From positions 47,344-111,343 of the forward strand of contig CAZSFZ010000004.1 in NCBI GenBank assembly GCA_964606385.1: a stretch of 64,000 bases of DNA, in the 5' to 3' direction. A model generated the notes under the pieces. It was not told the origin of the DNA. It saw only the letters and a program-made list of their open reading frames with translations, and searched no databases. Positions within the stretch are counted from its first letter, which is position 1. Each line of letters opens with the position of its first letter. Positions 9,793-27,611 of the stretch are shown here, one piece after another. The translations under genes were made by a program, and so were the position numbers. This stretch comes from an uncultured bacterium (GTDB taxonomy: Bacteria > Omnitrophota > Omnitrophia > Omnitrophales > Aquincolibacteriaceae).

Positions 9793-9888
9793 ATGAATTC
9801 GCATAAAACATTCAAAGCGTTCGTTGCTGGTTTTACGGCCCTCATTTTTACCGTTACAAGTTTCGGAATTTCACCCAACGCTTTTGCG
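9793..9888 (+). other. Predicted Sec signal peptide of giant protein (cleavage near AFA/AAA)
   Basis: MNSHKTFKAFVAGFTALIFTVTSFGISPNAFA|AAA: n-region with K, hydrophobic core, AxA site. Confidence 0.6.
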
Positions 9889-12800
9889 GCCGCAGCCATG
9901 CCTGAAGTGTCTCTGCCGTATCAGGCCGCGCTCGGCCAAAGCCTGAATCTTGCGGTCCCTCAAAAACTTGGCAAACTCGAACATTTCAACGCGGGGCAAA
10001 GCGATAAGCCCGCGATCTTCCATCTCCAGACAGCTCACGGGCATTATGAAGCCCAACAGCAGATCCGCGAGATCCTTCATTATCTTGATAAACAATACGG
10101 TGTGCGGACCGTGCTGGTCGAAGGTAGCGCTTTCAAGCTCGAACCCGAGCTCCTGAATTTTTTCCCCAAAGATAAAGCGCTGACGCAGAAGGTGAATGAC
10201 GCGCTTACAAAACGCGCGATCGTCAAAGGCCCCGAACTGTATTTGCTCGATATGCTCGGGGAACGGGGAACGGGGAACGCAAACGTTAACCGTTCCACGC
10301 ATGACGTTTCCCGCGCTGCCGCACCGGCAGCGTACGGCATCGAAGACCTCAATGCTTATCGCGAGAACGGCGTTTCATTTGTAAACGTGCTCGAGGAAAA
10401 ACAGAAGACCGAACAATTCCTCGCGGACATGAACCTCCAGATCGACCGGCTTGCGAGCCAGCTCCTGAACAAAGACCTCCGCGATTTTCTTCGTCGCGTG
10501 GATGCCTTTGAAAAGAACCAGATCCCGCTCGATACCTGGCTTGCCCAGTTGAAAGGGGAGGCCGCCAAGCGCCTCGAGATCGATCTCGCTTCTCCCACCC
10601 AGCAGTTGGATTGGCCGATGATGGTACGTCTTTTCAAGGCCCAGGAGTTGACCGCGAAAATTGACCGCGAAAAACTCCCGAAGGAACGTGAGGAGTTTCT
10701 GAAAGCGATCCGGCGTTTTATGCCGGGGAACGTAAAACGTGGAACGCAGAACGATCCGTCAACCGTTTCCCGTTCACCGTTCATCGCGATCGAATCGTTG
10801 CTTCATAGCGATTCGATAAGCGTCCAGCTTCCAGATCCTGAAACCGGCATGCTTTTTGAAGATATGGTCACGCAACTTCCCGCGAATTTCAATTATGAAG
10901 CTTTCCCGAATGTCCGCAATTTTATCGCGACCCTGCTCCTTCAAAGCGAGTTGAAAGCCGACCTGGTGATGTTGGAAGTCCAGAAACTTACGGCAGCGGT
11001 CACGGAAAAGCTGACCCGCAACAAGACCGAGAAAAAACTGGTGACGCTGCTTGCCGACCACCGGTTGTTGCAGAAGCTCTTTGCGCTGGAGCTCACGCCG
11101 GCCGATTACGAAGCAATCGCGGGACACGATCCACGGTCCAAGGCCCACGAAAAAACTTTAAAGCCCTCAGCGATCGTAGCGCGGTTTAAAAACGTGGCCC
11201 GTGGCCCGGGAGCCGTGGCCCGGAGCAAGGCTGTTCAATTTGAAAACGTTCAAGAACTTGATCAGCTCGACCAGTTATATGAAAGCGCGATGAAGTTCTA
11301 TGAGGGCGTCAAAGGGCGCGACGAGCTCATGATGAAGCGCGTTGAAGAGCGTCTCAAGGAGACGGGGGATCAGAAAGTCGCTGTGATTACCGGCGGTTTC
11401 CATTCCGAGCCTTTCCATAAATATTTTGCGAACAAGCAATACACCTATGCCCTTATTTCTCCGCGCATCTCAGGCGCTGACGACAAAGGCCACGTTGCCT
11501 ACATCGAAAGCGTCATGGGCATCACGAAACGCGCGACACGCGAGTCCGTTTCTCCGGCGGACCGGCAGGTGCTCGCGGCGGAGAATTTATACGGGGTCGA
11601 TCAGGCAGCCTACCGGAACCTGGTCCGGAAAGTCATCGCGGATGTGACGCGGCCCCACCTTGCAGAAGCAGACGCGGCTCGTTTGAAATTTGCGGCTGGG
11701 CTTGCGACGGCGGGGAATTTCCGCGCTGAAATGCGTCAGACCGTGCCGGGCACGCCTCAGAACACCGGGGAGACGGCGGCCATTACCTTTACGGAAGCCA
11801 AAGATATCGTAGAAGCCCGTAAAGCCAAAGCGCGGGTCCAGGGGACGCGCGGGGCTTGGCCCAGTCTCGACTCTGTTTTTCGCGATTCCTCTTTTGTGTT
11901 CATTCCAATCGCTGTCGGGTCCGAATTTGCTGGAAATTATTTTCTCCGAAGCCGCTCCGAAGCGAGAGCAAACGATGAGGGATTGATAGAGCAAATTGTG
12001 AGGGACCTTAAAGAGAACATTCAAGCGGGTCCCGACTTTATCTTGACTGCTCTTCAAAACCGGCGCAGCTTGCTGACCCTTGAGCTCAATTATTATGATA
12101 TTGCGGAGCAAATTTACCAGACGCTTTCAAAAACCGGGATGAAAAAGGTGGAAGCCGAGATTTTTTTCAGCAAAAACTCCGATGCTATCCGCCAGGCATT
12201 TTCCCGTTCCGAGGCCCGTACCGAGGAAGAAGAAAGAGCTTTGAGTGTCGATATCCTGCTTGGGCAGTCGCCTCAAAAGTTGCCCCAGGATGTTATTCAT
12301 AAGCTCAAAGAAAACGGTTTTCAGACGTTTGGGGACATTCTGACGGCTCTTGATGAGAAGCTTCGGAAAGGGAAGAGAAGGTTTTCTTTTCTGGATTGGG
12401 TGACAGAAGTTGAATTCCTCGTCGCTGTGAAGCGCGAGGCGCCCATCAGCTATGCCAAAATTCAGAAAATCCGCACCCCCAAAAGCCGTGCGGAAGTACG
12501 CGAAGCAAGCGAATTCGGGATTGAGGAAGATGACAAGTTTCCAATGACCGATGCCGAGGCGGATCTTTCCCTCGACGATATCATCGGGGAACTGTATGCC
12601 GTAGCGGATGCGGATGAAAGCGATTCCGGCGATGCCAAGGCTGAAGCGCTTCAGCATATTGATTTGATCCAGAGCGCCAAGCATAAAAATCAACTTCTTC
12701 CGGCTATCGTTGATGCTCAGAAATTCCTCCGCAGTCCCTTAGCGGCCAATCGATCAGAAGTTCGAATCGATCCGAAAGAGCTTGAAGCAAAATTCCCGAC

Positions 12801-15800
12801 TGCGGCCGAACTCGGCATCAAAAGACCCGCCAAATGGCAGTTCTGGATGCAAGATCCCGTGATCGAACGCATGAAAGCCTATGCGACCGAATATCTTGCT
12901 TTTTATGGGTATGCTCCCAAGGCTGCTTGGCTCAAGAGTTTTGTGGATATGTATCTCGCTGGGAGCCGCCACTCCTTTCAGGCTTTTCAGCGCATGCTTC
13001 CCGCTGACAAGCTGGATGCTTTTGTCTACATCGGTGATCTGAAGAAACTTCCCACAGCTCCTCAGCCCGCCGCTAAATCTGAAGTTCAGTCCGCGCTCAA
13101 GAAGCCAGGCGCCAAGCGATCCGAAATCCGGTTAACGCCTGAACAGGAGACGCGGCCATTAGATATCGTAAAAGACCAAGCTGCAATTAGTCATGTTGTT
13201 GTGACCGCTGAGTCCCTTTATAGGCAATGGTCTTCAAAATGGTTTTGGCAGTTACGCATGGGAGAATTTTCTAATGCAAAAAAGCAAATAAAAGCCCTTC
13301 TTGAAAACAAAAAACTTACTTATAAAGACCGGAACTTCTATGGTCTCAACAGACAACCAATTACCGAAGAAGCATTTATTCTACAAGTCATTGTTTTAGG
13401 GCGTTTGGGTTATGGTATTGACGCTTCGATTGTTACCAATAAAGAGATCACACGCTCAGTGAGCCGCGCTGGAAAACGTGACAGCTGGGAGACGTCAGAA
13501 GATGTTGAGCATTGGGGGCGCGACGTGGAAGTGGTGAGTCCGGCTTCGCACAATATTTATTTAGTAGCAACTGCTCGTTCTGAAGTTCGCTTGACGGATG
13601 CCGTGGATGTTTCGAATCAAGCTTTGTTTAATGATATCCGGTCGGTGGCGGAGAACCGGGGTGCTGAGGCCGCGCTGGAGTTCATTCATGCCTATGAGCC
13701 ACGCATCACGGGAGACCAGGACCGCGCCGCGCTTGAGGCTTATCGCAAAGCTTTAGAGCAATCGATGCGCTCAGAGCTACGTAACGCTGGAGAAAAAGAA
13801 GCTAAACGCCTCCAGTTAATGGAAGAGGCGAAAGCGCTGTCAGCGCAATCTGAGGCGATGGCCAAGGATCCTGATGAGGAACGGTACGCTCCTTTATATG
13901 AAGGCTATGCCCGCGAGAGATTGCGTCAGGCCGCGCAGCTTGAAGCTGAAATGGATGCTTCAGCCCGAGCTGAATTACGGGTTGGTGCAGTCATTCAACG
14001 TGTAGCAATCTTTGCGGCGGTGGCTGCGATGACGGGTCTTGTCGGATGCGCTACGAGTCAGCCAGGCCTTTATCATCCGCCGGTTTATTATCCCGCTTCT
14101 CAAAAGACACCCATCTATCATCCGCCGACCTTACCGTCCAACTACAGAGCTCCAAAAATCAATACGGCTCCTGTGGTTCCTCCGGGGGGTATCCGTGTGA
14201 CGCCTCCCCGCCCGTCTGTTCCGCCTGCGCCCAAGCCGCCGGTGATCCGTCCGGGACGTTCGGAGGTTCGTAGTGCGTTCCATCATCTCAAAGAAGCCAA
14301 GACGCCCGCGGAAGTCGGGCATTATCTGGCGCAGCTTTTGGTGACAGGCCAGTTGAACGGTCAGGATAAAAAGATCCTCGAGAAAGCCCTACAAGATGAA
14401 TTTGCTTCAGAAACATCCGGGGAAAAAGTCCAGGATCCTTCAAAGATCACACGTCGTTCCGAATTAAGGGGACACTTGGATCGAATTCGAAAGGCCCAGC
14501 AGAGGCTCGAAGAGGAACGGACCAGCGCCAAATGGCTTGTGATCCTTGGTTTGGCCGGACTTATTTTTATCCTGCACGCTCTCGAAAAATCTTCCTCAGG
14601 AGAAATTGATGAAGCGCAGACGCAAGCCCCTTTGCTTGATCTTGGGCAGGCCCAGCCGCGTTCGGAATTACGTGAAACAACGCAGGAAGCGCTGAGGAGG
14701 ATCCATGCGGACCTGGATGGTGTTGACCGGTTGATCACGGAACTTAAGCGCGACCGAAAAGCACCGAACCGAGAGACCCGTTTGAGGGTGTTGAATGCGG
14801 CTTACCGCGAACTCGAGCAGGAACGGCTTCGCTTGGAGATCGAAAAAGCGGTTAAAGATTTTTGGGGCGAAGAACTCATTCAGTTTCTTGGCTCGGTGGC
14901 GACCGTTTCTCCGGCGACACTTGGGCGCGCTTTAGTTCTGGGTGCGGTCATGCATCCCGCCATGATTCGGAATTTCACAAAGCTGGACCGTTCGGAAGTG
15001 AGGGCGGAAGCGGACGTGGCAACTGCGGCAAAGATCGCCGAACGATGGAAGAGGATCACTTATGTTGAAAGCGATCCGGAAGGCGCGAAGCTCAAGGCCG
15101 AAGCCGAAGAGAAAGGCGCTGGCTTCTTAAACAATGCCCAGACGACCGTCCGTAAAGTCGCAGCCCAGATCAAGCTCGATCCCAAAGTTCTTGAAAAGCT
15201 CCTCCAGTTTACGAAAGCGATTCAGATCAAGATTCCCCTGACGCTCGATGAAGGCGGGGAGACGCGTTACATTGACGGTTACCGTATTGGTCACGCTCCT
15301 TATCGCGGTCCTTACAAGGGCGGCATCCGTTACGCGATCGCGGTTGTGCTGTCCATGATCAAGGCGCTCGCGACGGAAATGAGTTTCAAGAACGCGATCG
15401 CGGGGCTTCCGTACGGCGGCGGCAAGGGCGGCGTGGCGGTCAACCCGAAGGAACTTTCCGTGAAGGAGCTTGCGCGCTTGACCCGCGGGTATGTTTCAGA
15501 ATGCCTGAAGCAGGATCCCAAAGCTTTCGGGCCCCTTGACGATGTTCCGGCGGGAGATATCGGAACTACTTCCCGTGAAATGGGCTGGTTCGCGGATGAA
15601 TTCTTGAAGATCACGCGTCCGGATCTTTTTACTTCTTCGGAGTTCCTTGAAAAACTTGCCAAGTCCGATGAAACCTCCACTCCTTATCTTGAATACTATA
15701 TGGAAGCTTATTACGGCAAGAGGCATATCGATATGAGTGAAGGTTCGCCCATCGCGACCGTGACGGCGAAACCCGAAGGGAAGGGCGGGGCTATGGGCCG

Positions 15801-18800
15801 TACGCCGGCAACCGGACTGGGACTCTATTACGTAACGCGTGAGGCGCTAAAGGTCTACGGCGAACGTCTTGGGATTGGAACAAGTGTGAAGGGACAAAGA
15901 GTCGCGGTGGAAGCCTACGGGAACGTCGGGAGTTACGCTGCCCGGAGTTTTTATAAAGACGGTGCTTCGATCATGGCTCTCAAAGAATATGTTCGCGGAC
16001 AAAATGTAGCGGTCACGGCCGTGAAAGATTCGGGCATCGATCTTGATGCGTTAGACAAGCATTTGGCTGAGAAAAATGCCGATGGAACTTCAAAGGGAAA
16101 TACGGTCCTGACCTATGCGGCGGCGCATCCGGAAGATGCGCGAGTGGTGGATGTCGATCAGTTCTGGTCAAGCGATGTGACGATCCTTGCATTGGCCGCG
16201 AAGGAAAAGACGGTCAATAAGGAAATAGCCGCTCTTATCAAAGCAAAGATCATCTCGGAGGGCGCAAACGGGCCTCTGGAGCTTGACGGCTCCGAGCAGA
16301 TCCTCCTGGATAAAGGCGCGATCATTCTTCCGGACGTGGCCACGAACGATGGCGGTGTAGCATTCTCGTCGCTGGAATGGCGGCAGAACAATATCGGGGA
16401 GCTTTGGCCGGAAGTCGCCGGGAACGGTCTCATGGAAGACAAAGTCGTAAGCGCTTTTTATGACATCTCCCGCGTTTCCGAATCCCAGAAGATCACCTTG
16501 CGCGAAGCGGCCTATCAGATCGCGATCAGCAAGATCGTGGACGCAATGCTTGCCGAGGATTCCGAGCTGGCGTCTCTTTTTGACGAGAGCCATCCTCCCT
16601 ATGTTATGGATGCGGGGGCGAAACGTTGGCGTCCGGAAACCCTGCCGCAACTGAAGCAGGTCGATTCGACCGCTAAAAGGATCGAGTTGATCGAACGGGC
16701 AGATAGCGTCATGAGCAAAAAGGTTGATGAGCTCGTGGCGGAGGCCCTTCGTGAGCTTCCCCTGAAACGAGGGAGCGTGATCCTCCTCGGCGGGCAGCGT
16801 GCGGCCGGAAAGCCGATGCTTGCCGGGCAGATTATGAACAAGATCCGCGAAAAGGGGATCAAGGCGGATGTTCTTGATTTGGATTATCAGACGATTGAAG
16901 ACGTATCCCGCGTGCTTCAGGGCAAGACTATTTTTGTGCGCAAAGAGAACGGTTTGAGCGGAGGGGCTTTCAACCTGGAAGATAAAGAGATCCTTGTGGT
17001 CCACGGTTATTATGCCTTAGGCGACGAGATCCTTCGATTCGTCAAGGCGATGGGAGGCAAGGCTTATCCTGTCATGGCTTATAGTTCACCCGACATCCTC
17101 CTCGCCAATAATTGGGCGCTGACCGCCTACGACCTGCGTTTGATGCGGGATATTTTAACAAGTGTGGCTGTTGGTGAGGAAAACAATGCCCAGGAAGTGA
17201 TCCGTCGGTGGCAATGGCAACGCGTTTCTGAGACTGAAGCTGTTATGGCGACCTGGAAGAATGCCAGGCGTGCGATCAATACGTACCTTCCTTATGAGCT
17301 TCCGTTCCTGAAATCCCTGATCGCTCCCATGATCCGTGTTGCAACGCAGCAGGAAATGAAACGTCCGGATAGCGACGTTTTCACCATGAATGTATTGCAT
17401 CATCTGGACAAGCTGTTGGTCGGCGTCGAGGGTTGGGATGTTTCACTTCTTGACGGCCATCATAATTCCGTGCTGTGGGAGTATGTACAACGCTATGCCC
17501 CGAATGGTATTTATGCGGAATCAGCCGACGACGATATCAAAAAAGTTGCGAACGCGTTGGTCAAGGAAGCCAAAGACACGGTTTTCCTTCTCACTAGCTT
17601 ACAAGACGCTGAAAATTTAACACAGTTGCCCGCGTGGCTCTCTGCCTCGATCGAGCGGATCCTGTTGGCCTTAGAAGTCCAGAAAGATGCCGCAAGCTGG
17701 TATGTCGAAAATCGCGGAAATCTAGTGAGGCTTTTGTCCGGCCGTTCGGAAATGAGGACGATGCCCGCTTTGGGGTCGCCCCACCAAGAACGCTCCGGGG
17801 CAAGGTTAAATGTGCTGATCCTCGGTCGGGGGAGTGATGCTGGGGTCCTGGGAGAGGATATTTGGAAGGGTTTGGGCCGTCCGGATCAAGGGATCTATAT
17901 GCCGGAGACGGAACGCGAAGCCAGAAGTGCTTTGCGGAATGTCCGCGGTTCATTTGATGCCGTGGTGGTAACGATCCCGGACGGAAATCAGACGCTTCCT
18001 CGATGGATGTTCGATCTTGTCCTGGAAATGCGCGGACAAATGCCCGAAATCCCCGTCTTGATCAGTGCGAGCGATAAAAGTATGGTCAGCCCCGCTGCGA
18101 TCTACACCATCAGGGCGCCGATTAAGCTGTTTGTGAAGACTCAAGGGTCTCCCGCGCTTGTTGCAACCCTGAAGGATATCCCGGCGCGTTCTGAAGCGCG
18201 GGCGATACCTGTGTTGGGGGCGACGCATCCGGAGTTGGAAGCCAAGTATAAAGATCAGGTGGAAGCCTCAACCCCCGCTTATGTGAAGCGGGGGAATCCT
18301 ATTTTTGATATCACAACCCCCGGGCAGTTCGAGGCCGTTTTGAAGTACGCGCATTTGTATGCGTACAAAAAAGACGTGGCTTTCGATCCTGCGAATCCCG
18401 GACCCAATGACGAGGGGCTCGGGCTCATGGCTTGGCTAGAGGACTATGAAGCCGAAGCCAAAGTGGCAACCGCGGGTATTCGTTTGACGCAGAATATTCT
18501 TTATCCTTGGGATACCCGGAACCGCATCAATGAGATCGGGATCGCATTCGCAACGCTCGCTAAAGCGTCGGTAAGTAAGGAACAGTTCTCCGGCAAGGAC
18601 CTGGAGAAACTAACGGGTGGGGAATCCCGTTATAACACCAAACGGTTCGTGGACATGATCGCCCGTATCCAGGCCGCACAGGGGATCAGGACCTATGTTC
18701 CCGTCAAACGCCATACGACACCGATCTGGATGGTGTCCATGCTGGCTTTTATGTTCGATCTTGTTGGTGCGGAACACGTGACCTCTTCTCACGCCGGCAG

Positions 18801-21800
18801 CAATTTTTCGGCGACCAAGGACATCAATAATCAAGGGAGCCAATACCTGCCTGAGGAATCAGGACGATTTGTCGCTAAGATCCGTGACATGTTCGAAGTA
18901 GCTAAAAAACAGGGCGAATTCCGTTTCGCGATCGCTGCAGCGAATGATCCTCTCATCGATGAAGAATTGATGAAAGCGACGGATGACGGAACGGATGTCT
19001 ATGTGGACTACCTGAAGAACGGTGTTGCGACGGGCGTCAATTTAGACCGCATCCGCAACGTCAAAGATAAGATCATTGTCGATAGTGTCGGAGGGTCCAT
19101 GTACCGGACCATGACGCGTATCTTTGCGAAACTCGGGATTGCGGACGCGTTCCAGTGGTTGCATACAGAAGAAGACCCGTTCTTTCACGGGATTGGTAAG
19201 GAATTGACCTCTGCGGGGAAGGTGAACGACTACACGCAGGACACGACGGTCATTAAACGTGACAAGAAAACCGGGGAAACGACTTCGATCCCTGTCATGG
19301 AACGTATGGGGTATGACACGCTTCTTAAGGACGCGCCGATCGGGAAAGTAGTGCTTATGACGGACCCGGATGGAGACCGTCTGGTAACGGGACAGGTGGA
19401 ATCCGCGGACCGTGCCGCATACTTGAAACAGCTTGGAGTGGAAGTCCTGAAGCTGGACGAGAATCGGATCCTCGCGGTCTACTCTCCAAACCAATCCTTT
19501 TTCATGTCGATGGTTTATCACGCGGATTCGCTCAAGGCCGCGGGACTGTGGGATAAGCACCCGCGTTTTATCATCATGACGACCGCTTCGTCGCCGGCGT
19601 GGCGCGAATGGGCCGAGAAGAACGGCGTCCAAGTCCTGAACGTGCCGGTCGGTTTTAAAGAGATCGCCGCGATGATGAAGAAGGTCGAATACCAGATGAA
19701 GAAAAATCCGGGAAAACCGGTCGTTGTGAAGGACGTCTTTGGGCGAGAAGTGAACCTGGGTTTGGACCCCCGGATGCTTTTTGCAGGAGAGGAGTCCGGC
19801 GGGATGATCATCGGGCCTGAAGAGCTTATCCAGAGCCGGAGCGGCCGTTTGGCGATCGCGATGCGGGAAAAGAGCGCGGGCGAAGCACTCGTGATCCAAG
19901 CAGCGATGGCGGCTTATTTGGAATCCAAAGGCCAGCCTTTGTCCGGTTATCTCAGTGAACTATTTGATAAGAACCGGATCGCAAGCCGTTTTGATGTGCG
20001 TCATGACCAGACTTTCTACAATCAAAGCGAGCCGGATCCCGATGAACTGAAGAAAGAAAAAGCGAAAGGCGAGATCGCCCGCGAAAAGAATTACGCGTTC
20101 TTTGTGAATATGGTGCTTTCGAAGCTTTCGGGGAAGACGACCACTCAACAGATCATCGAGATATTGAATGAGGTTTTCGCCCCTCAAGGGCTCCGCTTCG
20201 ATGATCTTCAGGACATGATCTTCGTGGGAGATGGTGTTTACCTTCAGTTTCCGGACAAAATCATGGAGATCCGGCCTTCCGGGACTGACGCGAAATCAAA
20301 ATCCTATGGTTACGGGAATGACAAGTTGCGTTTGGCGGTTTATGCGCAGGCCGTGGGTGCCTATAGCGGCGATCCGACGGCTCTTTACCGGCAGTATGTT
20401 GATATGAGCAATTTTGAAGAGGTTAGGGTCGTAAATGGGAAGCCTGTGTTTCGCGGCGAAGATGTTCGCTGGGAGCTTTATCAGGCTTATTACCGGGAGG
20501 GACTTCCGGAAGAGGACTATCAGCCGGCTATGGTTTCCGTCGGCTCAAATCTCGTGACCCCGGCTCAGTCGGAAATCCTGAAAGCGCGTGCGGAAATGCG
20601 TTCGAAACTTGATCTCGAGCAGGCCGCGAAAGCTATGACGATCTCGGCCGCGGTGATCTTGGGTCTTGTGGTCCTGGGCCAGCTCTCTGAAGTCGCTAAG
20701 CTGACGCTTGGCCTTGCCACACTCGGTCTTGCGGGAGCCTTCTGGAACATCCGGAATTTCAGCTTCAAACCGGAGGATCTTTCAAGCCGTTATCCTCAAG
20801 CGACTTCTCTGATCCGGGAGAAGATCCAAAAGATCCTCGCCATCGATCCGCATTTTACGGGTTATGCCTTGGACAGGATCGATTGGAAAAAGATCGATCG
20901 TGATCTTGTGGAGCTTGCTTCCTTAGAAGCGCTCATTGCGCATGGAAGTCAGCACGTTCTGACGGATAGCGGCATCAAGCTTGTTCGGGATGACCGCAAA
21001 GGTGCTGTGACGGTCTTTTCAGCGCAGTCCGTCCGTGACCAGCTCAAGAAGACAGGCGGGGAGATCGTTGAGGCGGGTCACCGGTACCGGCAAGCGGCGC
21101 GCGAACGCTATAGCGTTCAACTGGCTTCGCGTAGTGAGGCGCGCGCAGAAGGGGAAACAGAAGTAAAGCCTGCGGCAAACGCGGCCGTTTCGGCAGAGAA
21201 GCCGGTTGAGGAAAAGCCGGCGCCCAAGATCGATCCCACGAAACCGCTTTATGAAGCTACCTCGTCTCCTCGCGAAGAAAAATCTGCCGTGCTTGAAGGC
21301 GGGGCTATCTTGTTCTGGGGATTTATTGGCATTCTGACCGTGGCCGGATTAGTGGGCGCTCTGATCTTTATTCATAAGGAAGCGGCGCATGATGGTATGT
21401 CTCGCGCGATCATGGTCACGATCTATGGCGTGCTCGCGATCACCGGAACTGTCGCTGGGTGGTTAATCTATGGCATGAGTCGGGATAACCAAAAAATCGC
21501 GGGAGCGGAGGCGAGTTCCAAGTCTGAGGTGGTTTCTCCCGTTAAGGCAGGTAGTCAGCCGTTCCAGCCTTCCGATGCGCCCAAGATCCCCGCGGAAGCC
21601 GCGACGGAAAGCCGTTCCGAAGTGCGTCAAAACGTTGAACAGGAAATGAACGATCTTTTGTCCCGCCGGGACGACCTCATGAAAACCGAAAAATATACGG
21701 CCCAGGTTGCGGTCGAACTTCAGCAGGTCAACGACCGGATCGCGGAGATTCGCCGCAATGTTCAGCAATCCAGAGAGCGTTCGGAAATTCGTAATCCGGA

Positions 21801-24513
21801 AAAAACAATAGATCGAGAAATTGTTCCCGCCCTGATGAAAAGAATTGTCGACCGGGAAATGACGCTTCAAAAGATAGTGGTGGATGAAAAAACCCGTCTT
21901 GAAATAGAAGTTTCTTTGCGTGAACGCGCGATAAACGCTTATCACGCGATCTTTCCCGTTGCAGTCTCAAAAGGATTGGACCCCATAGCGGCTCTAAGGT
22001 TTTTTTATGGGCTGGTTCCTTCGGAAACGGATAGCGATAGAAAATTCATGGACGTCTATGCCGGATTTCTGGCGAAGGATGAAGAAAAGATTCGGGATGC
22101 GAACCGTCAAATATTCGGCACTCCGATCAAGGACCTGGCGACGGCTCGTGAGATCTTTGGGGAAAAATTCTCGTCATGGCTTGGCGTGTTGCTCGCTTTG
22201 CCTCAGGACCTTCTTGAGCAGCGGTTTGCCAAAAAGCTCAGCGGGGACCGCTATGAGCCGGTTGATGAAAATATCTCCGTAATGGCGAACTTCCTTGAGA
22301 ACTTGACGGGGCTTCGTTTGGGGGACGATCGCGAGGTTCTGATCGGGGAAGCCGGTCGGTTGTGGAATGCCTGGAATGATTGGGTCAATCCATCCCGGTC
22401 GATCCCGGTGGCGTCCCGTGTGCTCCAGGTGGGGGGCCTTCAGGTCGTCCAGCATTCCACAGGGTCTTTCATCGCGAAACGGTCTGAGACGCGGATCAAT
22501 CTTATGCAAGTGGCGCCTCAGTTACGGCCTGCGGCAGAATTTCTTGTGGCCACTTTGACGGCCGCAAAAGCAAGCCCGAGGATCGTGACCGCAACGGCTC
22601 GTGAAGTGAAGATCGGAATCACCGATCACGCGGAACGTCAGAATTTGGGGATCATCCTGGCTTATCATCCCGGGAAAACAGGGGTTCTCTATAACAATAG
22701 TGCTCAGCTGCCTGCCGCGGTGGATTTTGAGGTTCGCATTGAACGCGGGGCGGATGAAGCGGAAATGACCACATATGCTTTTGGAGCGGTCAGCGCCGAG
22801 GGCGACGCCCAGGCCAGGGATCTCGTGAATCAATCCTACAGATTGCTTGATACCCTGAGTAAGCTGGAACCTTCCTGGAGCAATGTGCTTCCGGATGGGT
22901 ACTACCCCGGGCGTGGTACCGAAACGGTTTCGCTGGGGACTGAAAAAGATGTCGGACAGACGCGCGCGGAAGTCCGCATCAATGATTTCCGCTATTCCAT
23001 AACCCCGCTGTCCGCGGATGAGAAACGGGTTCCGGGATCGATCAAACGTGAGATGAGTGATGAGGCCCAGCAACCCAATGTTCGCTGGAGCCGGGAGGAG
23101 CTCGAAGGTCTTTCCCAAAAGGTTGTGGATGCGATGAAATACTGGACCCCGAGGCTCTATACCTCCAAGGCTCCGGATGTTCAAACAGCCAAGATGGTTC
23201 AGGAACGGTTATACTCCGAACATTATAGCTATGAGATACCTCTCGCGGCCCATATGTTAAAGGAGATAGCCTTAAAAGCATTGGCCGGAAGAGGTCCTCA
23301 GATCAATGAACTGGGAGAAGGTGACTTGATGTGGGTGGCCAGGGTGCTTCGAGCAGGTGCCGAACATGGCCGCATCCTTCAGAAATACCGGGAAAACTAC
23401 CAGGGGTGGGGGAACTACGACCAGCTGGAATATCTGGCAAGCTCGTCCTCCTATCTGAGAAACGTTCTGAGGAAATTAACCGAGATTTATCAGGCAGAGG
23501 CGCGCCAGGCCGGATCGAATCAGCCCGTGGCTCCTTCCGCGACTGTTCGCTCGGAAGTCCGTGCCGAGGCTCAAGCGGTCTCGCCTGCCGATCAGGGGAA
23601 TTTCATCGTATGGCAGGATGTCCTCGAGGATGTCTACGAGGGTGTCCGTTATGAAGAGACGATCGTTGAAAAAGTGACGCGCTGGTTTCGCGCCGGCATC
23701 CTGCCGTTGCGTGTGGCGTTCTCAGCATCTTACCAGAGAGCGGTGGAGTTGTTGGAACGCATGGGGATCCGTAAAGATGAAGCCGTGGTGCTGGCGAGCC
23801 GTCTTACGGCGGAAGATATGCGGCTGCTTGAGGCGATCAATGCCAAGAGCTTGGCGATCCCCAGGGATCAGACAGGCAAAACCCTTGCCGGCGGTGTTGT
23901 GTTCATGGATGCCGAAGGGCTTCTGGGATTCGCTAAAAATGATAGCCGTGGTTTTTATGCCATGGTGGAAGAACTTGCCGCGGAACAGACGGCAAATGGC
24001 GTTACCGCTAAGCCGATCCTGACCGCGGGAGATGCCGCGTTGATCGGGAAGATCGCCCAAGTATTGAACAACAAGAATTCCGAACTTTTGCCGGCCGAAA
24101 AAGTAAAGGCCCAGGGCTTGATCGATCAAATCCTTCAGGTCGAGGCCCTCAAAGGGGATCAGGCCGCCACGATCAATGGATTGGCCGCGGCAAGACCCGG
24201 GGGGATGGTCACCGTTCTTTCTTCCGCAGAGATGCTGGCGGGCCTTAGCGAAGGAGCGAACTTCGCCTTCAAAGACCGCTTGGCCAAGGAGAACGTGAAA
24301 CTGGTCGTGCGGGCACTTTTGGGACGGATGAGAACGCTGGCAGCCCAATTGGATGGCGCTCCGGCCGCCGATCGGGTCAAGCTTCTTGAAGAGTTCAATG
24401 CGCGTCGCATGGGGGGTCTCAAGAAGACACAGGGCGGATTCGTTTTCGACAATGTCCTCTTGCTCGTCCAGAGCTTTCTCGCTCAGGAAAAAGCGACCGC
24501 GAAATCCGCATAA
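9793..24513 (+). CDS. Giant multidomain secreted/membrane protein, 4906 aa, with embedded amino-acid-dehydrogenase-like and phosphohexomutase-like domains and a recurring R-[SA]-E-x-R motif
   Basis: Uninterrupted 14.7-kb ORF, while neighbouring genes stop at TAA/TGA/TAG. N-terminal signal peptide. No similar-length antisense ORF. Internal enzyme-family motifs. See sub-features and findings. Confidence 0.85.
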   Translation: MNSHKTFKAFVAGFTALIFTVTSFGISPNAFAAAAMPEVSLPYQAALGQSLNLAVPQKLGKLEHFNAGQSDKPAIFHLQTAHGHYEAQQQIREILHYLDKQYGVRTVLVEGSAFKLEPELLNFFPKDKALTQKVNDALTKRAIVKGPELYLLDMLGERGTGNANVNRSTHDVSRAAAPAAYGIEDLNAYRENGVSFVNVLEEKQKTEQFLADMNLQIDRLASQLLNKDLRDFLRRVDAFEKNQIPLDTWLAQLKGEAAKRLEIDLASPTQQLDWPMMVRLFKAQELTAKIDREKLPKEREEFLKAIRRFMPGNVKRGTQNDPSTVSRSPFIAIESLLHSDSISVQLPDPETGMLFEDMVTQLPANFNYEAFPNVRNFIATLLLQSELKADLVMLEVQKLTAAVTEKLTRNKTEKKLVTLLADHRLLQKLFALELTPADYEAIAGHDPRSKAHEKTLKPSAIVARFKNVARGPGAVARSKAVQFENVQELDQLDQLYESAMKFYEGVKGRDELMMKRVEERLKETGDQKVAVITGGFHSEPFHKYFANKQYTYALISPRISGADDKGHVAYIESVMGITKRATRESVSPADRQVLAAENLYGVDQAAYRNLVRKVIADVTRPHLAEADAARLKFAAGLATAGNFRAEMRQTVPGTPQNTGETAAITFTEAKDIVEARKAKARVQGTRGAWPSLDSVFRDSSFVFIPIAVGSEFAGNYFLRSRSEARANDEGLIEQIVRDLKENIQAGPDFILTALQNRRSLLTLELNYYDIAEQIYQTLSKTGMKKVEAEIFFSKNSDAIRQAFSRSEARTEEEERALSVDILLGQSPQKLPQDVIHKLKENGFQTFGDILTALDEKLRKGKRRFSFLDWVTEVEFLVAVKREAPISYAKIQKIRTPKSRAEVREASEFGIEEDDKFPMTDAEADLSLDDIIGELYAVADADESDSGDAKAEALQHIDLIQSAKHKNQLLPAIVDAQKFLRSPLAANRSEVRIDPKELEAKFPTAAELGIKRPAKWQFWMQDPVIERMKAYATEYLAFYGYAPKAAWLKSFVDMYLAGSRHSFQAFQRMLPADKLDAFVYIGDLKKLPTAPQPAAKSEVQSALKKPGAKRSEIRLTPEQETRPLDIVKDQAAISHVVVTAESLYRQWSSKWFWQLRMGEFSNAKKQIKALLENKKLTYKDRNFYGLNRQPITEEAFILQVIVLGRLGYGIDASIVTNKEITRSVSRAGKRDSWETSEDVEHWGRDVEVVSPASHNIYLVATARSEVRLTDAVDVSNQALFNDIRSVAENRGAEAALEFIHAYEPRITGDQDRAALEAYRKALEQSMRSELRNAGEKEAKRLQLMEEAKALSAQSEAMAKDPDEERYAPLYEGYARERLRQAAQLEAEMDASARAELRVGAVIQRVAIFAAVAAMTGLVGCATSQPGLYHPPVYYPASQKTPIYHPPTLPSNYRAPKINTAPVVPPGGIRVTPPRPSVPPAPKPPVIRPGRSEVRSAFHHLKEAKTPAEVGHYLAQLLVTGQLNGQDKKILEKALQDEFASETSGEKVQDPSKITRRSELRGHLDRIRKAQQRLEEERTSAKWLVILGLAGLIFILHALEKSSSGEIDEAQTQAPLLDLGQAQPRSELRETTQEALRRIHADLDGVDRLITELKRDRKAPNRETRLRVLNAAYRELEQERLRLEIEKAVKDFWGEELIQFLGSVATVSPATLGRALVLGAVMHPAMIRNFTKLDRSEVRAEADVATAAKIAERWKRITYVESDPEGAKLKAEAEEKGAGFLNNAQTTVRKVAAQIKLDPKVLEKLLQFTKAIQIKIPLTLDEGGETRYIDGYRIGHAPYRGPYKGGIRYAIAVVLSMIKALATEMSFKNAIAGLPYGGGKGGVAVNPKELSVKELARLTRGYVSECLKQDPKAFGPLDDVPAGDIGTTSREMGWFADEFLKITRPDLFTSSEFLEKLAKSDETSTPYLEYYMEAYYGKRHIDMSEGSPIATVTAKPEGKGGAMGRTPATGLGLYYVTREALKVYGERLGIGTSVKGQRVAVEAYGNVGSYAARSFYKDGASIMALKEYVRGQNVAVTAVKDSGIDLDALDKHLAEKNADGTSKGNTVLTYAAAHPEDARVVDVDQFWSSDVTILALAAKEKTVNKEIAALIKAKIISEGANGPLELDGSEQILLDKGAIILPDVATNDGGVAFSSLEWRQNNIGELWPEVAGNGLMEDKVVSAFYDISRVSESQKITLREAAYQIAISKIVDAMLAEDSELASLFDESHPPYVMDAGAKRWRPETLPQLKQVDSTAKRIELIERADSVMSKKVDELVAEALRELPLKRGSVILLGGQRAAGKPMLAGQIMNKIREKGIKADVLDLDYQTIEDVSRVLQGKTIFVRKENGLSGGAFNLEDKEILVVHGYYALGDEILRFVKAMGGKAYPVMAYSSPDILLANNWALTAYDLRLMRDILTSVAVGEENNAQEVIRRWQWQRVSETEAVMATWKNARRAINTYLPYELPFLKSLIAPMIRVATQQEMKRPDSDVFTMNVLHHLDKLLVGVEGWDVSLLDGHHNSVLWEYVQRYAPNGIYAESADDDIKKVANALVKEAKDTVFLLTSLQDAENLTQLPAWLSASIERILLALEVQKDAASWYVENRGNLVRLLSGRSEMRTMPALGSPHQERSGARLNVLILGRGSDAGVLGEDIWKGLGRPDQGIYMPETEREARSALRNVRGSFDAVVVTIPDGNQTLPRWMFDLVLEMRGQMPEIPVLISASDKSMVSPAAIYTIRAPIKLFVKTQGSPALVATLKDIPARSEARAIPVLGATHPELEAKYKDQVEASTPAYVKRGNPIFDITTPGQFEAVLKYAHLYAYKKDVAFDPANPGPNDEGLGLMAWLEDYEAEAKVATAGIRLTQNILYPWDTRNRINEIGIAFATLAKASVSKEQFSGKDLEKLTGGESRYNTKRFVDMIARIQAAQGIRTYVPVKRHTTPIWMVSMLAFMFDLVGAEHVTSSHAGSNFSATKDINNQGSQYLPEESGRFVAKIRDMFEVAKKQGEFRFAIAAANDPLIDEELMKATDDGTDVYVDYLKNGVATGVNLDRIRNVKDKIIVDSVGGSMYRTMTRIFAKLGIADAFQWLHTEEDPFFHGIGKELTSAGKVNDYTQDTTVIKRDKKTGETTSIPVMERMGYDTLLKDAPIGKVVLMTDPDGDRLVTGQVESADRAAYLKQLGVEVLKLDENRILAVYSPNQSFFMSMVYHADSLKAAGLWDKHPRFIIMTTASSPAWREWAEKNGVQVLNVPVGFKEIAAMMKKVEYQMKKNPGKPVVVKDVFGREVNLGLDPRMLFAGEESGGMIIGPEELIQSRSGRLAIAMREKSAGEALVIQAAMAAYLESKGQPLSGYLSELFDKNRIASRFDVRHDQTFYNQSEPDPDELKKEKAKGEIAREKNYAFFVNMVLSKLSGKTTTQQIIEILNEVFAPQGLRFDDLQDMIFVGDGVYLQFPDKIMEIRPSGTDAKSKSYGYGNDKLRLAVYAQAVGAYSGDPTALYRQYVDMSNFEEVRVVNGKPVFRGEDVRWELYQAYYREGLPEEDYQPAMVSVGSNLVTPAQSEILKARAEMRSKLDLEQAAKAMTISAAVILGLVVLGQLSEVAKLTLGLATLGLAGAFWNIRNFSFKPEDLSSRYPQATSLIREKIQKILAIDPHFTGYALDRIDWKKIDRDLVELASLEALIAHGSQHVLTDSGIKLVRDDRKGAVTVFSAQSVRDQLKKTGGEIVEAGHRYRQAARERYSVQLASRSEARAEGETEVKPAANAAVSAEKPVEEKPAPKIDPTKPLYEATSSPREEKSAVLEGGAILFWGFIGILTVAGLVGALIFIHKEAAHDGMSRAIMVTIYGVLAITGTVAGWLIYGMSRDNQKIAGAEASSKSEVVSPVKAGSQPFQPSDAPKIPAEAATESRSEVRQNVEQEMNDLLSRRDDLMKTEKYTAQVAVELQQVNDRIAEIRRNVQQSRERSEIRNPEKTIDREIVPALMKRIVDREMTLQKIVVDEKTRLEIEVSLRERAINAYHAIFPVAVSKGLDPIAALRFFYGLVPSETDSDRKFMDVYAGFLAKDEEKIRDANRQIFGTPIKDLATAREIFGEKFSSWLGVLLALPQDLLEQRFAKKLSGDRYEPVDENISVMANFLENLTGLRLGDDREVLIGEAGRLWNAWNDWVNPSRSIPVASRVLQVGGLQVVQHSTGSFIAKRSETRINLMQVAPQLRPAAEFLVATLTAAKASPRIVTATAREVKIGITDHAERQNLGIILAYHPGKTGVLYNNSAQLPAAVDFEVRIERGADEAEMTTYAFGAVSAEGDAQARDLVNQSYRLLDTLSKLEPSWSNVLPDGYYPGRGTETVSLGTEKDVGQTRAEVRINDFRYSITPLSADEKRVPGSIKREMSDEAQQPNVRWSREELEGLSQKVVDAMKYWTPRLYTSKAPDVQTAKMVQERLYSEHYSYEIPLAAHMLKEIALKALAGRGPQINELGEGDLMWVARVLRAGAEHGRILQKYRENYQGWGNYDQLEYLASSSSYLRNVLRKLTEIYQAEARQAGSNQPVAPSATVRSEVRAEAQAVSPADQGNFIVWQDVLEDVYEGVRYEETIVEKVTRWFRAGILPLRVAFSASYQRAVELLERMGIRKDEAVVLASRLTAEDMRLLEAINAKSLAIPRDQTGKTLAGGVVFMDAEGLLGFAKNDSRGFYAMVEELAAEQTANGVTAKPILTAGDAALIGKIAQVLNNKNSELLPAEKVKAQGLIDQILQVEALKGDQAATINGLAAARPGGMVTVLSSAEMLAGLSEGANFAFKDRLAKENVKLVVRALLGRMRTLAAQLDGAPAADRVKLLEEFNARRMGGLKKTQGGFVFDNVLLLVQSFLAQEKATAKSA
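10256..10315. repeat. Family-1 palindromic element inserted in-frame inside the giant ORF
   Basis: ggggaacggggaacggggaacgcaaacgttaaccgttccacgcatgacgtttcccgcg. Translates GERGTGNANVNRSTHDVSRA without a stop. Confidence 0.7.
10724..10790. repeat. Family-1 palindromic element inserted in-frame inside the giant ORF
   Basis: ggggaacgtaaaacgtggaacgcagaacgatccgtcaaccgtttcccgttcaccgttcatcg. Translates GNVKRGTQNDPSTVSRSPFIA. Confidence 0.7.
11193..11223. repeat. Family-2 direct tandem (GTGGCCCG x3) in-frame inside giant ORF
   Basis: cgtggcccgtggcccgggagccgtggcccgg, translated VARGPGAVAR. Confidence 0.6.
13981..14260 (+). other. Predicted TM helix followed by a Pro/Tyr-rich low-complexity segment in giant protein
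   Basis: VGAVIQRVAIFAAVAAMTGLVGCA, then PGLYHPPVYYPASQKTPIYHPPTLPSNYRAPKINTAPVVPPGGIRVTPPRPSVPPAPKPPVIRPG. Confidence 0.55.
14527..14585 (+). other. Predicted TM helix in giant protein
   Basis: AKWLVILGLAGLIFILHAL hydrophobic stretch. Confidence 0.5.
15190..16560 (+). other. Glu/Leu/Phe/Val dehydrogenase (GDH-family) domain inside giant protein
   Basis: Family motifs in canonical order: PYKGGIRYA (substrate Lys), GGGKGG (catalytic Lys loop), DVPAGDIGTTSREMGWFADEF, and NAD(P) fingerprint AYGNVGSYAARSF. Confidence 0.75.
16770..16890 (+). other. P-loop kinase-like segment (degenerate Walker A) inside giant protein
   Basis: GSVILLGGQRAAGKPMLAGQIMNKIREKGIKADVLDLD resembles a uridine-kinase/PRK-type N-terminus, but GKP replaces GK[ST]. 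Confidence 0.3.
18430..20400 (+). other. alpha-D-phosphohexomutase (PGM/PMM)-like domain inside giant protein
   Basis: All four family motifs in order: Ser loop TSSHAGSN (~18790), metal loop TDPDGDRL (~19365), sugar loop AGEESGGM (~19790), phosphate loop IRPSGTDAKSK (~20275). Confidence 0.7.
20620..20752 (+). other. Predicted pair of TM helices in giant protein
   Basis: AAKAMTISAAVILGLVVLGQL...LTLGLATLGLAGAFWNI. Confidence 0.5.
21298..21480 (+). other. Predicted cluster of ~3 TM helices in giant protein
   Basis: GGAILFWGFIGILTVAGLVGALIFI...AIMVTIYGVLAITGTVAGWLIYGM. Confidence 0.5.
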
Positions 24514-26838: not shown

Positions 26839-27611
26839 AAAAGGTCCTGACGATCGCGCGCAAGGAATTCGGGAGCTGTTTTCACTCCTGGCTGGGGGTG
26901 TTAGCATCGGGGCTTTTTTATCTGGCCTCCGGGATCTTTTTCGTAGTCTTGGTGCTCAGCTATGTCAAGATCTCCATGAACCCGCAGCAATACGGTCTTT
27001 CGAATTTCAGCGGGATCAACCAGACCCAATACGTTTTTGGATCCTTTTTCTCGAACATCAGCATTATGTTGCTTTTCCTAGTGCCGATCCTGACCATGCG
27101 CTCCTTTTCGGAGGAGAAGCGCCAGGAAACCCTCGAGCTGCTTTTCACGTACCCCCTGTCCGATTTTGAGATCGTTGCCGGCAAACAATTGGGGATCCTC
27201 TGGTTCTATGAAGCGATGATCCTGCCGCTTTTGGGCTATGTGGCGGTCTTTCACGGGATCGGCGGGGAATGCGACTGGGGGCCGGTCGTTCTCGGTTTTG
27301 TAGGCTTCTGGCTGCTCGGGTGTTCGTACCTGGCGGCGGGGGTCTTCATTTCAAGCCTCACGCGGAGCCCGGTCCTGAGTGCGCTCGGGACGTTCGGGGT
27401 CTTGCTCATGTTCTGGATCCTGGACTGGGTGGATGATATCTCGACGGGTTATTGGGCCCGCATTTTTTCCGAGCTGTCGCCGCTTGCGCATTACAAGAAT
27501 TTCACGCTCGGGATCCTGGACCTGAGGGATGTGGTCTATTTTGTTTTCTTTTTCTTTTACTTTGTTTTTCTGACACTCCGTTCGATCGAAACCCGGAACT
27601 GGAAAAGCTGA
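26835..27611 (+). CDS. ABC-2 family transporter permease
   Basis: Six hydrophobic segments. GTGA overlap with the upstream ATPase. Confidence 0.75.
   Translation: MKKVLTIARKEFGSCFHSWLGVLASGLFYLASGIFFVVLVLSYVKISMNPQQYGLSNFSGINQTQYVFGSFFSNISIMLLFLVPILTMRSFSEEKRQETLELLFTYPLSDFEIVAGKQLGILWFYEAMILPLLGYVAVFHGIGGECDWGPVVLGFVGFWLLGCSYLAAGVFISSLTRSPVLSALGTFGVLLMFWILDWVDDISTGYWARIFSELSPLAHYKNFTLGILDLRDVVYFVFFFFYFVFLTLRSIETRNWKS

Follow-up and report, generated by a model that had tools for sequence, protein, structure and literature searches.

The stretch of DNA analysed here (the window; 64,000 nucleotides (nt) from an uncultured bacterium of the Omnitrophales, contig CAZSFZ010000004.1 of assembly GCA_964606385.1, positions 47,344 to 111,343) contains one open reading frame (ORF) at 9793-24513 on the forward strand, which encodes a protein of 4,906 amino acids (aa; translated 9793-24510) and is referred to below as the giant ORF. 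An identical 4,906-aa protein was called on contigs of two independent sequencing runs and homologues are abundant, by which an assembly accident is ruled out. The giant ORF is a member of a large Omnitrophota family whose proteins combine a conserved N-terminal domain and a conserved C-terminal domain with variable and unrelated middle modules, and the pentapeptide R-[S/A]-E-x-R separates the modules of family members. The features of the giant ORF are given below in window coordinates, where L006-L085 denote 80 genomic loci of the family and P0036-P0165 denote 130 further representatives.

9793..24513, + strand: giant ORF, modular 'polyprotein' of an Omnitrophota-specific family (ORF list, homologues, shared chromosomal position)
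9793..9891, + strand: signal peptide or membrane-anchor helix, aa 1-33, with Lys5, Lys8, a hydrophobic core and AFA-AAA (hydropathy peak at aa 9-27; helix 4-24 in the AlphaFold2 (AF2) model; present in homologues)
9955..11532, + strand: likely TIKI/TraB/erythromycin-esterase-like hydrolase domain, aa ~55-580, with a long helical insertion and putative catalytic residues H82, E110, R509 and H537
11722..11736, + strand: motif 1, RAEMR, aa 644-648, the first site, just behind the N-terminal domain
11953..11967, + strand: motif 2, RSEAR, aa 721 (start of a homology block common to L022 and L018)
12205..12219, + strand: motif 3, RSEAR, aa 805
12487..12501, + strand: motif 4, RAEVR, aa 899 (start of a block common to L061)
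12751..12765, + strand: motif 5, RSEVR, aa 987 (an L006 block with 54% identity spans this site to the next)
13117..13131, + strand: motif 6, RSEIR, aa 1109
13576..13590, + strand: motif 7, RSEVR, aa 1262
13768..13782, + strand: motif 8, RSELR, aa 1326
13966..13980, + strand: motif 9, RAELR, aa 1392, directly before a lipoprotein-type signal
13981..14049, + strand: lipoprotein-like signal peptide behind motif 9, VGAVIQR-VAIFAAVAAMTG-LVGC, Cys1419 (sequence; similar modules in L008, L009, L017 and L076)
14257..14271, + strand: motif 10, RSEVR, aa 1489
14455..14469, + strand: motif 11, RSELR, aa 1555
14518..14592, + strand: hydrophobic (transmembrane-like) segment, aa 1576-1600 (hydropathy scan)
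14659..14673, + strand: motif 12, RSELR, aa 1623 (a block common to L009 starts 9 aa upstream)
14989..15003, + strand: motif 13, RSEVR, aa 1733, start of the glutamate dehydrogenase (GDH) module
15004..17742, + strand: module 13, aa 1738-2650, GDH-like enzyme (Pfam aa 1809-2254, nt 15217-16554; PF02812, E 4e-38; PF00208, E 3e-43) with a P-loop-kinase-like tail (kinase-like matches weak)
17743..17757, + strand: motif 14, RSEMR, aa 2651
18187..18201, + strand: motif 15, RSEAR, aa 2799
18202..20586, + strand: module 15, aa 2804-3598, divergent phosphoglucomutase (PGM)-like enzyme, domains I, II and III in order (Pfam PF02878, PF02879, PF02880)
20587..20601, + strand: motif 16, RAEMR, aa 3599, with a hydrophobic segment behind it (aa 3610-3639, nt 20620-20709)
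21130..21144, + strand: motif 17, RSEAR, aa 3780, with AGT as the Ser codon
21283..21471, + strand: hydrophobic segments, aa 3831-3893, two or three transmembrane-like helices (hydropathy scan)
21613..21627, + strand: motif 18, RSEVR, aa 3941
21778..21792, + strand: motif 19, RSEIR, aa 3996
22480..22494, + strand: motif 20, RSETR, aa 4230
22963..22977, + strand: motif 21, RAEVR, aa 4391
23548..23562, + strand: motif 22, RSEVR, aa 4586, the last site, ahead of the C-terminal domain
23563..24510, + strand: conserved C-terminal alpha/beta domain, aa 4591-4906, ending ...AKSA

A family of modular proteins at a fixed chromosomal position

A search with aa 1-1760 of the giant ORF as the query returned 35 homologous proteins, and those with a named source are almost all labelled Omnitrophota or Omnitrophica. 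The sequence common to these proteins is the first ~550-600 residues alone (the head). Behind it, the homologues carry acetate kinase, triose-phosphate isomerase (TIM), UDP-glucose pyrophosphorylase, and cytidine deaminase as cargo, together with CsrA, response-regulator receivers, helix-turn-helix domains, glycosyltransferases, glycogen synthase, methyltransferases, and dockerin; the variable middles of family members also hold GDH, PGM, lipoproteins, and many modules of unknown type. In the giant ORF itself, a Pfam scan of the whole protein matched solely the GDH pair (aa 1809-2254) and the divergent PGM domains I-III (aa 2919-3392), and most of its other modules had no Pfam match. A profile of the head found 8,115 cluster representatives among 1.84 billion proteins, 2,485 of them at E ≤ 1e-30, and the best 150 matches range from 400 to 7,823 aa in length, with the head domain starting nearly always near residue 45. 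The genome scan, made with a trimmed alignment, yielded the 80 loci, with two or three copies in some genomes, and every locus with a taxon name is labelled Omnitrophota/Omnitrophica or Candidatus Taenariivivens.

The giant ORF lies between lpxA on the opposite strand and tyrS, which is followed by an ABC transporter, DUF4340, and further genes; the ten flanking genes are housekeeping genes in conserved order. The same neighbourhood surrounds the relative L004 on both sides, and in L003 the downstream run from tyrS is the same and the upstream genes are different. The gene therefore occupies a fixed chromosomal position with variable content. Tandem family genes are common as well, in that a second long, Cys-free, motif-bearing ORF ending in ...SA or ...AA is found just upstream of the family gene, as in L069 (3-9368), L027 (2-9565), L060 (2-9658), L071 (2-9619), L082 (1-9588), and L008 (2-3010).

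The R-[SA]-E-x-R motif and the module boundaries

A preliminary description of this DNA had counted 17 RSExR and 5 RAExR pentapeptides in the giant ORF, and their first Arg codons begin exactly at the 22 nucleotide positions at which it had placed them (listed above). Its estimate that chance would give well below 1 agrees with residue composition, which predicts 0.10 RSExR and 0.19 RAExR, or approximately 0.3 in total vs. 22 found. A six-frame scan of the rest of the window gave 2 further R[SA]ExR matches in the frame of the ORF and 15 in the other five frames together, and the scarcity of matches elsewhere indicates that the enrichment is specific to the giant ORF. A compositional quirk of the genome had been raised as a possible objection, and ordinary neighbouring genes proved to be at background for the motif. 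One neighbour, a 505-aa ABC_transp_aux/DUF4350 protein (27452-28969, forward strand), contains in-frame RSEGR (nt 27965) and RAELR (nt 28829), which exceed expectation and could be chance.

The motif is equally a property of the family. Nearly all of the first 35 homologues hold 3-11 sites vs. 0.05-0.3 expected, with the first site soon behind the head; the 80 genomic family ORFs contain 449 sites in 190,873 aa (2.35 per 1,000 aa vs. 0.058 expected), and the 130 further representatives contain 815 sites in 390,744 aa. Across samples the density is 2.1-2.4 per 1,000 aa, a 35- to 75-fold enrichment over composition. Flanking ORFs of at least 200 aa hold 48 sites, 35 of which fall in eight other long ORFs beside the family gene, most of them directly upstream. 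These eight ORFs are almost Cys-free, and those with visible ends finish in ...SA, ...AA, or ...RA, for which reasons we regard them as tandem family members; the remaining 13 sites match the compositional expectation. Chance, composition, or recently copied DNA repeats could draw on a modest codon similarity among the sites alone, and we give this explanation practically no credence because the enrichment recurs in hundreds of proteins, the neighbouring genes stay at background, and, as had been described, the flanks of the 22 sites are unrelated and the motif codons are varied.

The sites are also placed in an orderly way along the protein. None occurs in the first ~640 aa of the giant ORF (the first is at aa 644), and sites between aa 644 and 1733 are 64-153 aa apart, in keeping with the 60-150 aa given earlier. 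The GDH Pfam domains lie behind the site at aa 1733, PGM domains I-III sit between the sites at aa 2799 and 3599, and in a hydropathy scan hydrophobic segments begin 5-11 residues behind the sites at aa 1392 and 3599, all of which the preliminary description had anticipated. In relatives, the first site is usually found at aa 530-770, and many complete relatives, though not all, have their last site 220-360 aa before the C-terminus. When family ORFs were compared all against all by BLAST outside the head, 108 homology blocks were delimited, and 49% of the block starts lie at most 5 aa from a site vs. 4.6% for randomly placed blocks; block ends coincide with sites less tightly (20% vs. 5%). In the giant ORF, a site lies no more than 9 aa away from 9 of the 10 block starts (p about 8e-9).

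Individual modules illustrate the same placement. The full-length TIM module of P0010 (profile positions 2-244 of 245) occupies aa 1172-1432, flanked by sites at 1160 and 1437, and in the CsrA module of P0012 profile position 1 falls at aa 715, the residue right behind RAEVR (710-714). In P0021, a receiver starts 5 aa behind a site, GDH stops 8 aa short of a site, and the interval between two sites is taken up by two CsrA copies. The GDH module of the giant ORF is 83% identical to a module of L009 and 78% identical to one of L015, at other positions in those proteins, and all of these modules begin with the motif (RSEVR in the giant ORF, RSEIR in L009, and RSELR in L015), with unrelated sequence upstream. 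The motif is thus retained in homologues and at orthologous module starts, a check that the preliminary description had proposed. It had also proposed that the sites should not be buried in folded domains, and they were found at module boundaries and in stretches with fewer bulky hydrophobic residues (0.28 vs. 0.32 within 15 aa either side of sites; p about 1e-11 to 1e-13), with a rise in Pro/Gly/Ser just upstream. In the AF2 models of the head and of the C-terminal domain, the first and last sites of the giant ORF border low-confidence, disordered segments. Within the GDH module, the region behind the GDH domains (16570-17742, aa 2260-2650) is P-loop (uridine/APS-kinase-like) sequence with weak Pfam matches, and the pairing of GDH with a P-loop kinase-like region recurs in P0007.

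Near-identical proteins from different samples differ by whole modules, which indicates that module content turns over at the strain level. Between P0002 and P0005 there is a 270-aa indel, both ends of which lie within copies of the motif; P0004 and P0003 are set apart by a 92-aa tandem duplication starting at RSEVR; and the difference between P0007 and P0006 is an 860-aa GDH block, which starts 8 aa behind RSELR. It is conceivable, and in our judgement improbable, that the 15 nt of the motif (core e.g. CGY-TCS-GAR) are primarily a recombination or cassette-insertion site, the peptide being a tolerated by-product. Such a DNA-level junction would account for the indels of 270 and 92 aa, for the variation of module content at the orthologous locus, and for a synonymous bias in codons 1 and 2. 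At the 449 sites of L006-L085 (window examples e.g. 14455-14460), Arg1 is CGC or CGT (CGY) in 81% and AGR in 4%, vs. 22% AGR for Arg before TCN/GCN elsewhere (p = 4e-24), and Ser2 is AGY in 6% (TCN in 94%), vs. 37% AGY for Ser before Glu elsewhere (p = 1e-35). Codon-pair context was rejected as the cause, as the bias persists in matched contexts; the Ser2 bias could be explained by Ser/Ala exchange (TCN/GCN). The variant motif of L042 is also nearly uniform in DNA (CTY TCC GAC TCC CGN), with GAC in 11 of 11 sites vs. 46% background.

Other properties of the motif speak against a DNA-level origin. Codon choice at the last Arg (all six codons) and at Glu (GAA and GAG) follows background, AGY-Ser and AGR-Arg1 do occur, and position 4 is limited to V/L/A/M/I/T/S, a constraint of amino-acid class and not of nucleotide. 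Background codon use at Glu and the last Arg, together with the restricted residue at x, argues that selection acts on the peptide, and the constraint on the next residue (below) is likewise a protein-level feature. Nor does the locus resemble an integron-like or cassette array, since half of the synonymous positions of the motif are at background and no recombinase is present among the neighbouring genes viewed at three loci. Fifteen degenerate nucleotides would be a poor site-specific target, and module turnover does seem to proceed by recombination between short homologous stretches at the junctions, as a by-product of a motif selected as a peptide. An origin from domesticated in-frame palindromic (REP-like) repeats, which had been suggested on the grounds that 12 of 17 sites start with CGT-TCN-GAA, was rejected. 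That count was too high: 8 of 17 do so (10 of 17 with GAG allowed) and 8 contain CGTTC[CG]. An inverted-repeat scan of the window revealed no multi-copy palindromic family sharing the motif core, and CGTTCSGAA occurs 7 times in the window vs. 3.1 expected, with 6 of the 7 being motif sites.

The confinement of the codon bias to the first two codons might also hint at codon/tRNA decoding, that is, at a ribosome-level separation in which the motif peptide or its codons release the upstream module in the manner of StopGo/2A, or pause translation for folding, without a protease. We know of no StopGo/2A-type mechanism in bacteria, and 2A signals need about 18-30 conserved residues whereas the motif has five with unrelated flanks. 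An RNA hairpin at the motif was rejected, as no association was found between candidate pairing positions; the folding z-score at the motif is -0.34 vs. -0.13 in controls (p = 0.11), and the lower raw minimum free energy there is attributable to GC content. With neither RNA structure nor covariation around the site, this explanation appears very improbable.

The residue that follows the last Arg is strongly constrained. At 471 sites, Pro occurs 4 times vs. 22.1 expected (p = 5e-6), Leu/Phe/Tyr/Trp 40 times vs. 85 (p = 7e-9), and Tyr not once vs. 12.4, while Ser and Thr are enriched about 2-fold; in a second sample of 815 sites, which may share some organisms with the first, Pro occurs 15 times vs. 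38, Leu/Phe/Tyr/Trp 72 vs. 151, and Ser/Thr 211 vs. 91. Pro is enriched directly before the first Arg. We infer that this is the pattern of a scissile bond behind Arg5 and of a new N-terminus. The avoided residues include the destabilising residues of the bacterial N-end rule (ClpS substrates), to which the avoidance may be linked.

Targeting signals also begin at the motif. At five loci, a canonical lipoprotein signal (positive n-region, hydrophobic core, and lipobox Cys) starts from the first residue behind the motif: that of the giant ORF (aa 1397-1419) reads RAELR followed directly by VGAVIQRVAIFAAVAAMTGLVGC, and modules with the lipobox signal directly behind the motif are also present in L008, L009, L017, and L076. 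Hydrophobic starts within 35 aa behind the motif are 2.5-fold enriched (p = 3e-5). Signals of twin-arginine translocation (Tat) type were seen by eye behind sites in P0001, P0016, P0022, and P0023, and a regular-expression screen for them behind the motif gave 2 of 452, too few for statistics. The mature region of the lipoprotein-type module of the giant ORF (aa 1420-1488, 14050-14256) is Pro/Tyr-rich and of low complexity (…YHPPVYYP…, …PYGYRPAVPYGYP…), and this is conserved as a type in the homologous modules of L008, L009, and L017.

Finally, the motif can change in concert throughout a protein. L042 (MHFO01000043.1, ORF 9833-21463) has LSD[SAT]R 11 times, P0070 has RTE[LM]R 16 times, and P0081 has RxELR 11 times; L057 has RAExR at 13 of 13 sites and L080 has RSELR at 10 of 10. 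If one factor recognised all the sites of a protein and co-evolved with them, the sites would be expected to change together in this way. At aa ~5070-5170, P0081 also has a tandem array of the 17-aa unit AQNSHAELPSS[RK/HN]ELRT, each unit of which holds an R/H-x-E-L-R element, resulting in a run of very short 'modules'.

On balance, and with moderate confidence, we therefore read the motif as a probable inter-module protease site that would be cut behind the last Arg, releasing modules with native-like N-termini. P5-P1 would correspond to R-S/A-E-hydrophobic/small-R and P1' to a small residue, and each freed module would act or be targeted alone, whether in the cytoplasm as an enzyme or regulator, in the membrane, or as a lipoprotein or Tat substrate. 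The junction codons might, more speculatively, double as short homologies for the gain, loss, and duplication of modules. The preliminary description had proposed such protease sites in a polyprotein, and its proposal came through the tests of motif frequency, site conservation, and boundary position that it had named, with cleavage itself as a prediction.

It is also possible, if unlikely, that the motif is an uncleaved linker tag on a giant multi-enzyme chain that stays intact, for example as a membrane-anchored scaffold. The tag would then be a hinge or a site for docking, recognition, or modification, read at every module boundary by a chaperone, by a machine for secretion or translocation, or by a modifying enzyme. 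A boundary position and linker-like flanks suit docking as well as cleavage, and the lineage-wide variants equally suit co-evolution with a non-proteolytic reader. The N-terminal signal, the internal hydrophobic segments, and the extreme depletion of Cys would suit a single exported or membrane-threaded chain. The giant ORF has 2 Cys in 4,906 aa, C1419 (lipobox) and C1904, vs. 1.25% in 16 neighbouring genes of the window, and family cargo has 0.07% Cys vs. 1.2% in flanking ORFs, a 17-fold depletion that extends even to the GDH, PGM, and TIM folds; exported proteins and those in unfolded transit are typically Cys-poor. However, Ala takes the place of Ser2 at 20-30% of sites, and in some lineages Thr or Lys does so, which leaves no phospho- or glyco-acceptor. 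Avoidance of Pro and Leu/Phe/Tyr/Trp specifically behind the last Arg, with Pro enriched before the first, is unexpected for docking; lipoprotein signals behind the motif, which have kept their Cys where the surroundings are Cys-free, require an N-side that is free or cytoplasmic; and CsrA and TIM start at their native first residues. An exported or membrane-threaded chain has been proposed for Omnitrophota giants in a 2026 preprint (10.64898/2026.06.07.730766).

The N-terminal head and the case for cleavage

The AF2 model of the head, built from 33 sequences (mean predicted local distance difference test score 83.6), has an N-terminal helix at aa 4-24, a disordered stretch at 26-49, and a putative hydrolase domain of ~530 aa whose alpha/beta core is split by a helical insertion of ~340 aa. 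Comparison of the model with structures gave the following values.

BcR135 (2rad): 10.3
HopBA1 (5t09): 9.7
TraB-family protein (8bqs_DQ): 9.6
EreC (6xcq): 9.1
BcR136 (2qgm): 9.0
ChaN (2g5g): 8.9
RRSP (5w6l): 7.9

The predicted alpha/beta fold has a parallel beta-sheet core as in Ere, ChaN, HopBA1, PMT, and RRSP. Near-invariant head residues are H82 (IHIQTAHG), E110 (VEGS), and H537 (TGGFH), and R509 is invariant. In this superfamily (TIKI/TraB-PrgY/erythromycin esterase/ChaN/RRSP), Bcr135 and RRSP likewise have a His-Glu pair 28 residues apart and an Arg followed by the His of a GGFH motif; the catalytic pair is H85/E113 in Bcr135 and H3902/E3930 in RRSP, and R4001 and H4030 are also essential in RRSP (PMC6254334). 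The spacings in the head are 28 and 28 residues vs. 28 and 29 in RRSP. The head differs in its insertion and in the 2His/2Glu motif of active members, the first Glu of which is Thr in the giant ORF and most family members and Glu or Asp in a minority. Sequence similarity was not detectable, as a Pfam search with the head (E up to 10) gave no match but a spurious one and a profile search of PDB sequences gave none; Foldseek with the head model was not significant. Taken together, the model suggests that the head likely has the TIKI/TraB/erythromycin-esterase fold.

Since several members of the superfamily (Tiki and RRSP) are peptidases, the head is a candidate protease for the motif, albeit a doubtful one. 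Its parallel with the C39 and S8 N-terminal peptidases of other Omnitrophota giants is suggestive only. Long members with few or no motifs keep the catalytic signature of the head, which lowers its standing as the protease, and a separate protease is at least as likely because the predicted export of the head conflicts with cutting in the cytoplasm. Co-loss of the motif and the catalytic residues was looked for and is refuted by the motif-less members that keep the signature. Complete members also share a C-terminal domain of ~250-300 aa, the end of which is nearly always Ala. Among the 130 representatives, 90 end in Ala (...SA, ...AA, or ...MA; ...AKSA at 24499-24510 in the window), and many of the others could be fragments; such a terminus is reminiscent of the small apolar C-termini that ClpX or tail-specific proteases recognise. 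As a protease candidate, the C-terminal domain was set aside, as its model gave generic Rossmann/HAD/PTA-like matches alone.

Several observations weigh against the reading of the motif as a protease site. The case for cleavage is wholly comparative. The head does not appear to track the motif: P0093 (7,384 aa), P0074, P0136, and P0085 are long members that are motif-poor or lack a recognisable junction motif and yet keep the catalytic signature of the head. The head should moreover be exported, given Lys5 and Lys8 before the hydrophobic core of a Sec-type signal (a positive-inside N-terminus), whereas the internal lipoprotein and Tat signals and the avoidance of N-degrons argue for cutting in the cytoplasm. 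The nucleotide-level bias in codons 1 and 2 is not predicted by a purely peptide-level site, and the dip in hydrophobicity around the sites is modest. In addition, the depletion of Cys in all modules suggests an extracytoplasmic or unfolded-transit fate even for enzyme folds that would be taken as cytoplasmic; it is unexplained by a simple picture of an operon expressed as a polyprotein, and it keeps open a reading as MARTX-like delivery.

Known systems and biological meaning

The published Omnitrophota giants of the 'multi-enzyme metabolic cluster' class share with the present family the phylum, the unrelated enzyme and regulator domains (PGM, starch synthase/GT1, and receivers), a signal peptide with scattered transmembrane helices, and a putative N-terminal peptidase, and cleavage has been proposed for them. 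They differ in size and head, being at least 10,000 aa long with C39 or S8 N-terminal peptidases, whereas the family described here covers 1,000-8,000 aa. Both papers on these giants (10.1101/2023.11.21.568195; 10.64898/2026.06.07.730766) report giant ORFs that encode several enzymes, and both propose that the products are cleaved. West-Roberts et al. 2023 (bioRxiv 10.1101/2023.11.21.568195) reported N-terminal peptidase domains in other classes of giants and stated that the cleavage points of Omnitrophota giants are unknown, a lack of information that blocked their analysis, and in the 2026 preprint (10.64898/2026.06.07.730766) internal signal-peptide calls were suppressed as artefacts. Searching the text of these two papers brought up neither a junction motif nor a TIKI/TraB-like head nor any remark on cysteine depletion, and in full-text searches of the literature RSExR and its common variants did not turn up as a junction motif.

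Outside this phylum, viral polyproteins and MARTX toxins come closest as working analogues, and the family belongs to neither. Viral polyproteins also join many unrelated proteins in one chain, with a short recurring consensus that has Arg at P1 and a small P1' (e.g. flavivirus NS2B-NS3 sites, with basic residues and Arg followed by a small residue) and that co-evolves with the protease; in contrast, the present gene is a cellular, chromosomal gene of a bacterium with more than 20 predicted cleavage sites. MARTX toxins are likewise very large, with conserved N- and C-terminal regions around variable, recombining effector modules, the linkers between which are processed by a built-in protease, and the MARTX effector RRSP has the TIKI fold. 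Unlike them, the giant ORF gave no RTX repeats or C80 cysteine-protease domain in the Pfam scan, contains 2 Cys, has a Sec-type signal instead of type I secretion, carries cargo that resembles housekeeping enzymes and regulators, and lies at a conserved housekeeping locus; its site is R-x-E-x-R, whereas MARTX processing sites are Leu-based. RgpA, Kgp, and HagA of Porphyromonas gingivalis are secreted polyproteins that are processed behind Arg or Lys into several products. These gingipain/adhesin polyproteins differ in having a C25 protease, a C-terminal domain for type IX secretion, few sites, and related adhesin modules, none of which was seen in the giant ORF.

It may further be, although we put this forward tentatively and hold it doubtful, that Omnitrophota use a cellular form of polyprotein gene expression in which dozens of unrelated proteins (metabolic enzymes, regulators, lipoproteins, Tat and membrane proteins) are made from one start and cut at R-x-E-x-R, with the junction codons as recombination points through which strains would capture, duplicate, and lose modules. 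This would amount to a replacement of the operon at the protein level, would involve a new sequence-specific protease/site pair, and may extend to the giants of 10,000-147,000 aa.

We rate the result as probable polyprotein processing in an unexpected place, by which an open question is made directly testable. Whether Omnitrophota giants act as one chain or as pieces is explicitly such a question, and a defined motif gives a cleavage map by which the one 'gene' of the window would become about 23 predicted products. If true, annotation would change, with higher gene counts, internal signal peptides that could be real, and counts of transmembrane helices to be reread. The family suggests a cellular analogue of viral polyprotein expression and possibly offers a new specific protease/site pair for engineered polyproteins. 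The near-absence of Cys and the turnover of modules at a fixed housekeeping locus, finally, offer further ways into the biology of these bacteria, which are uncultured and possibly depend on hosts.

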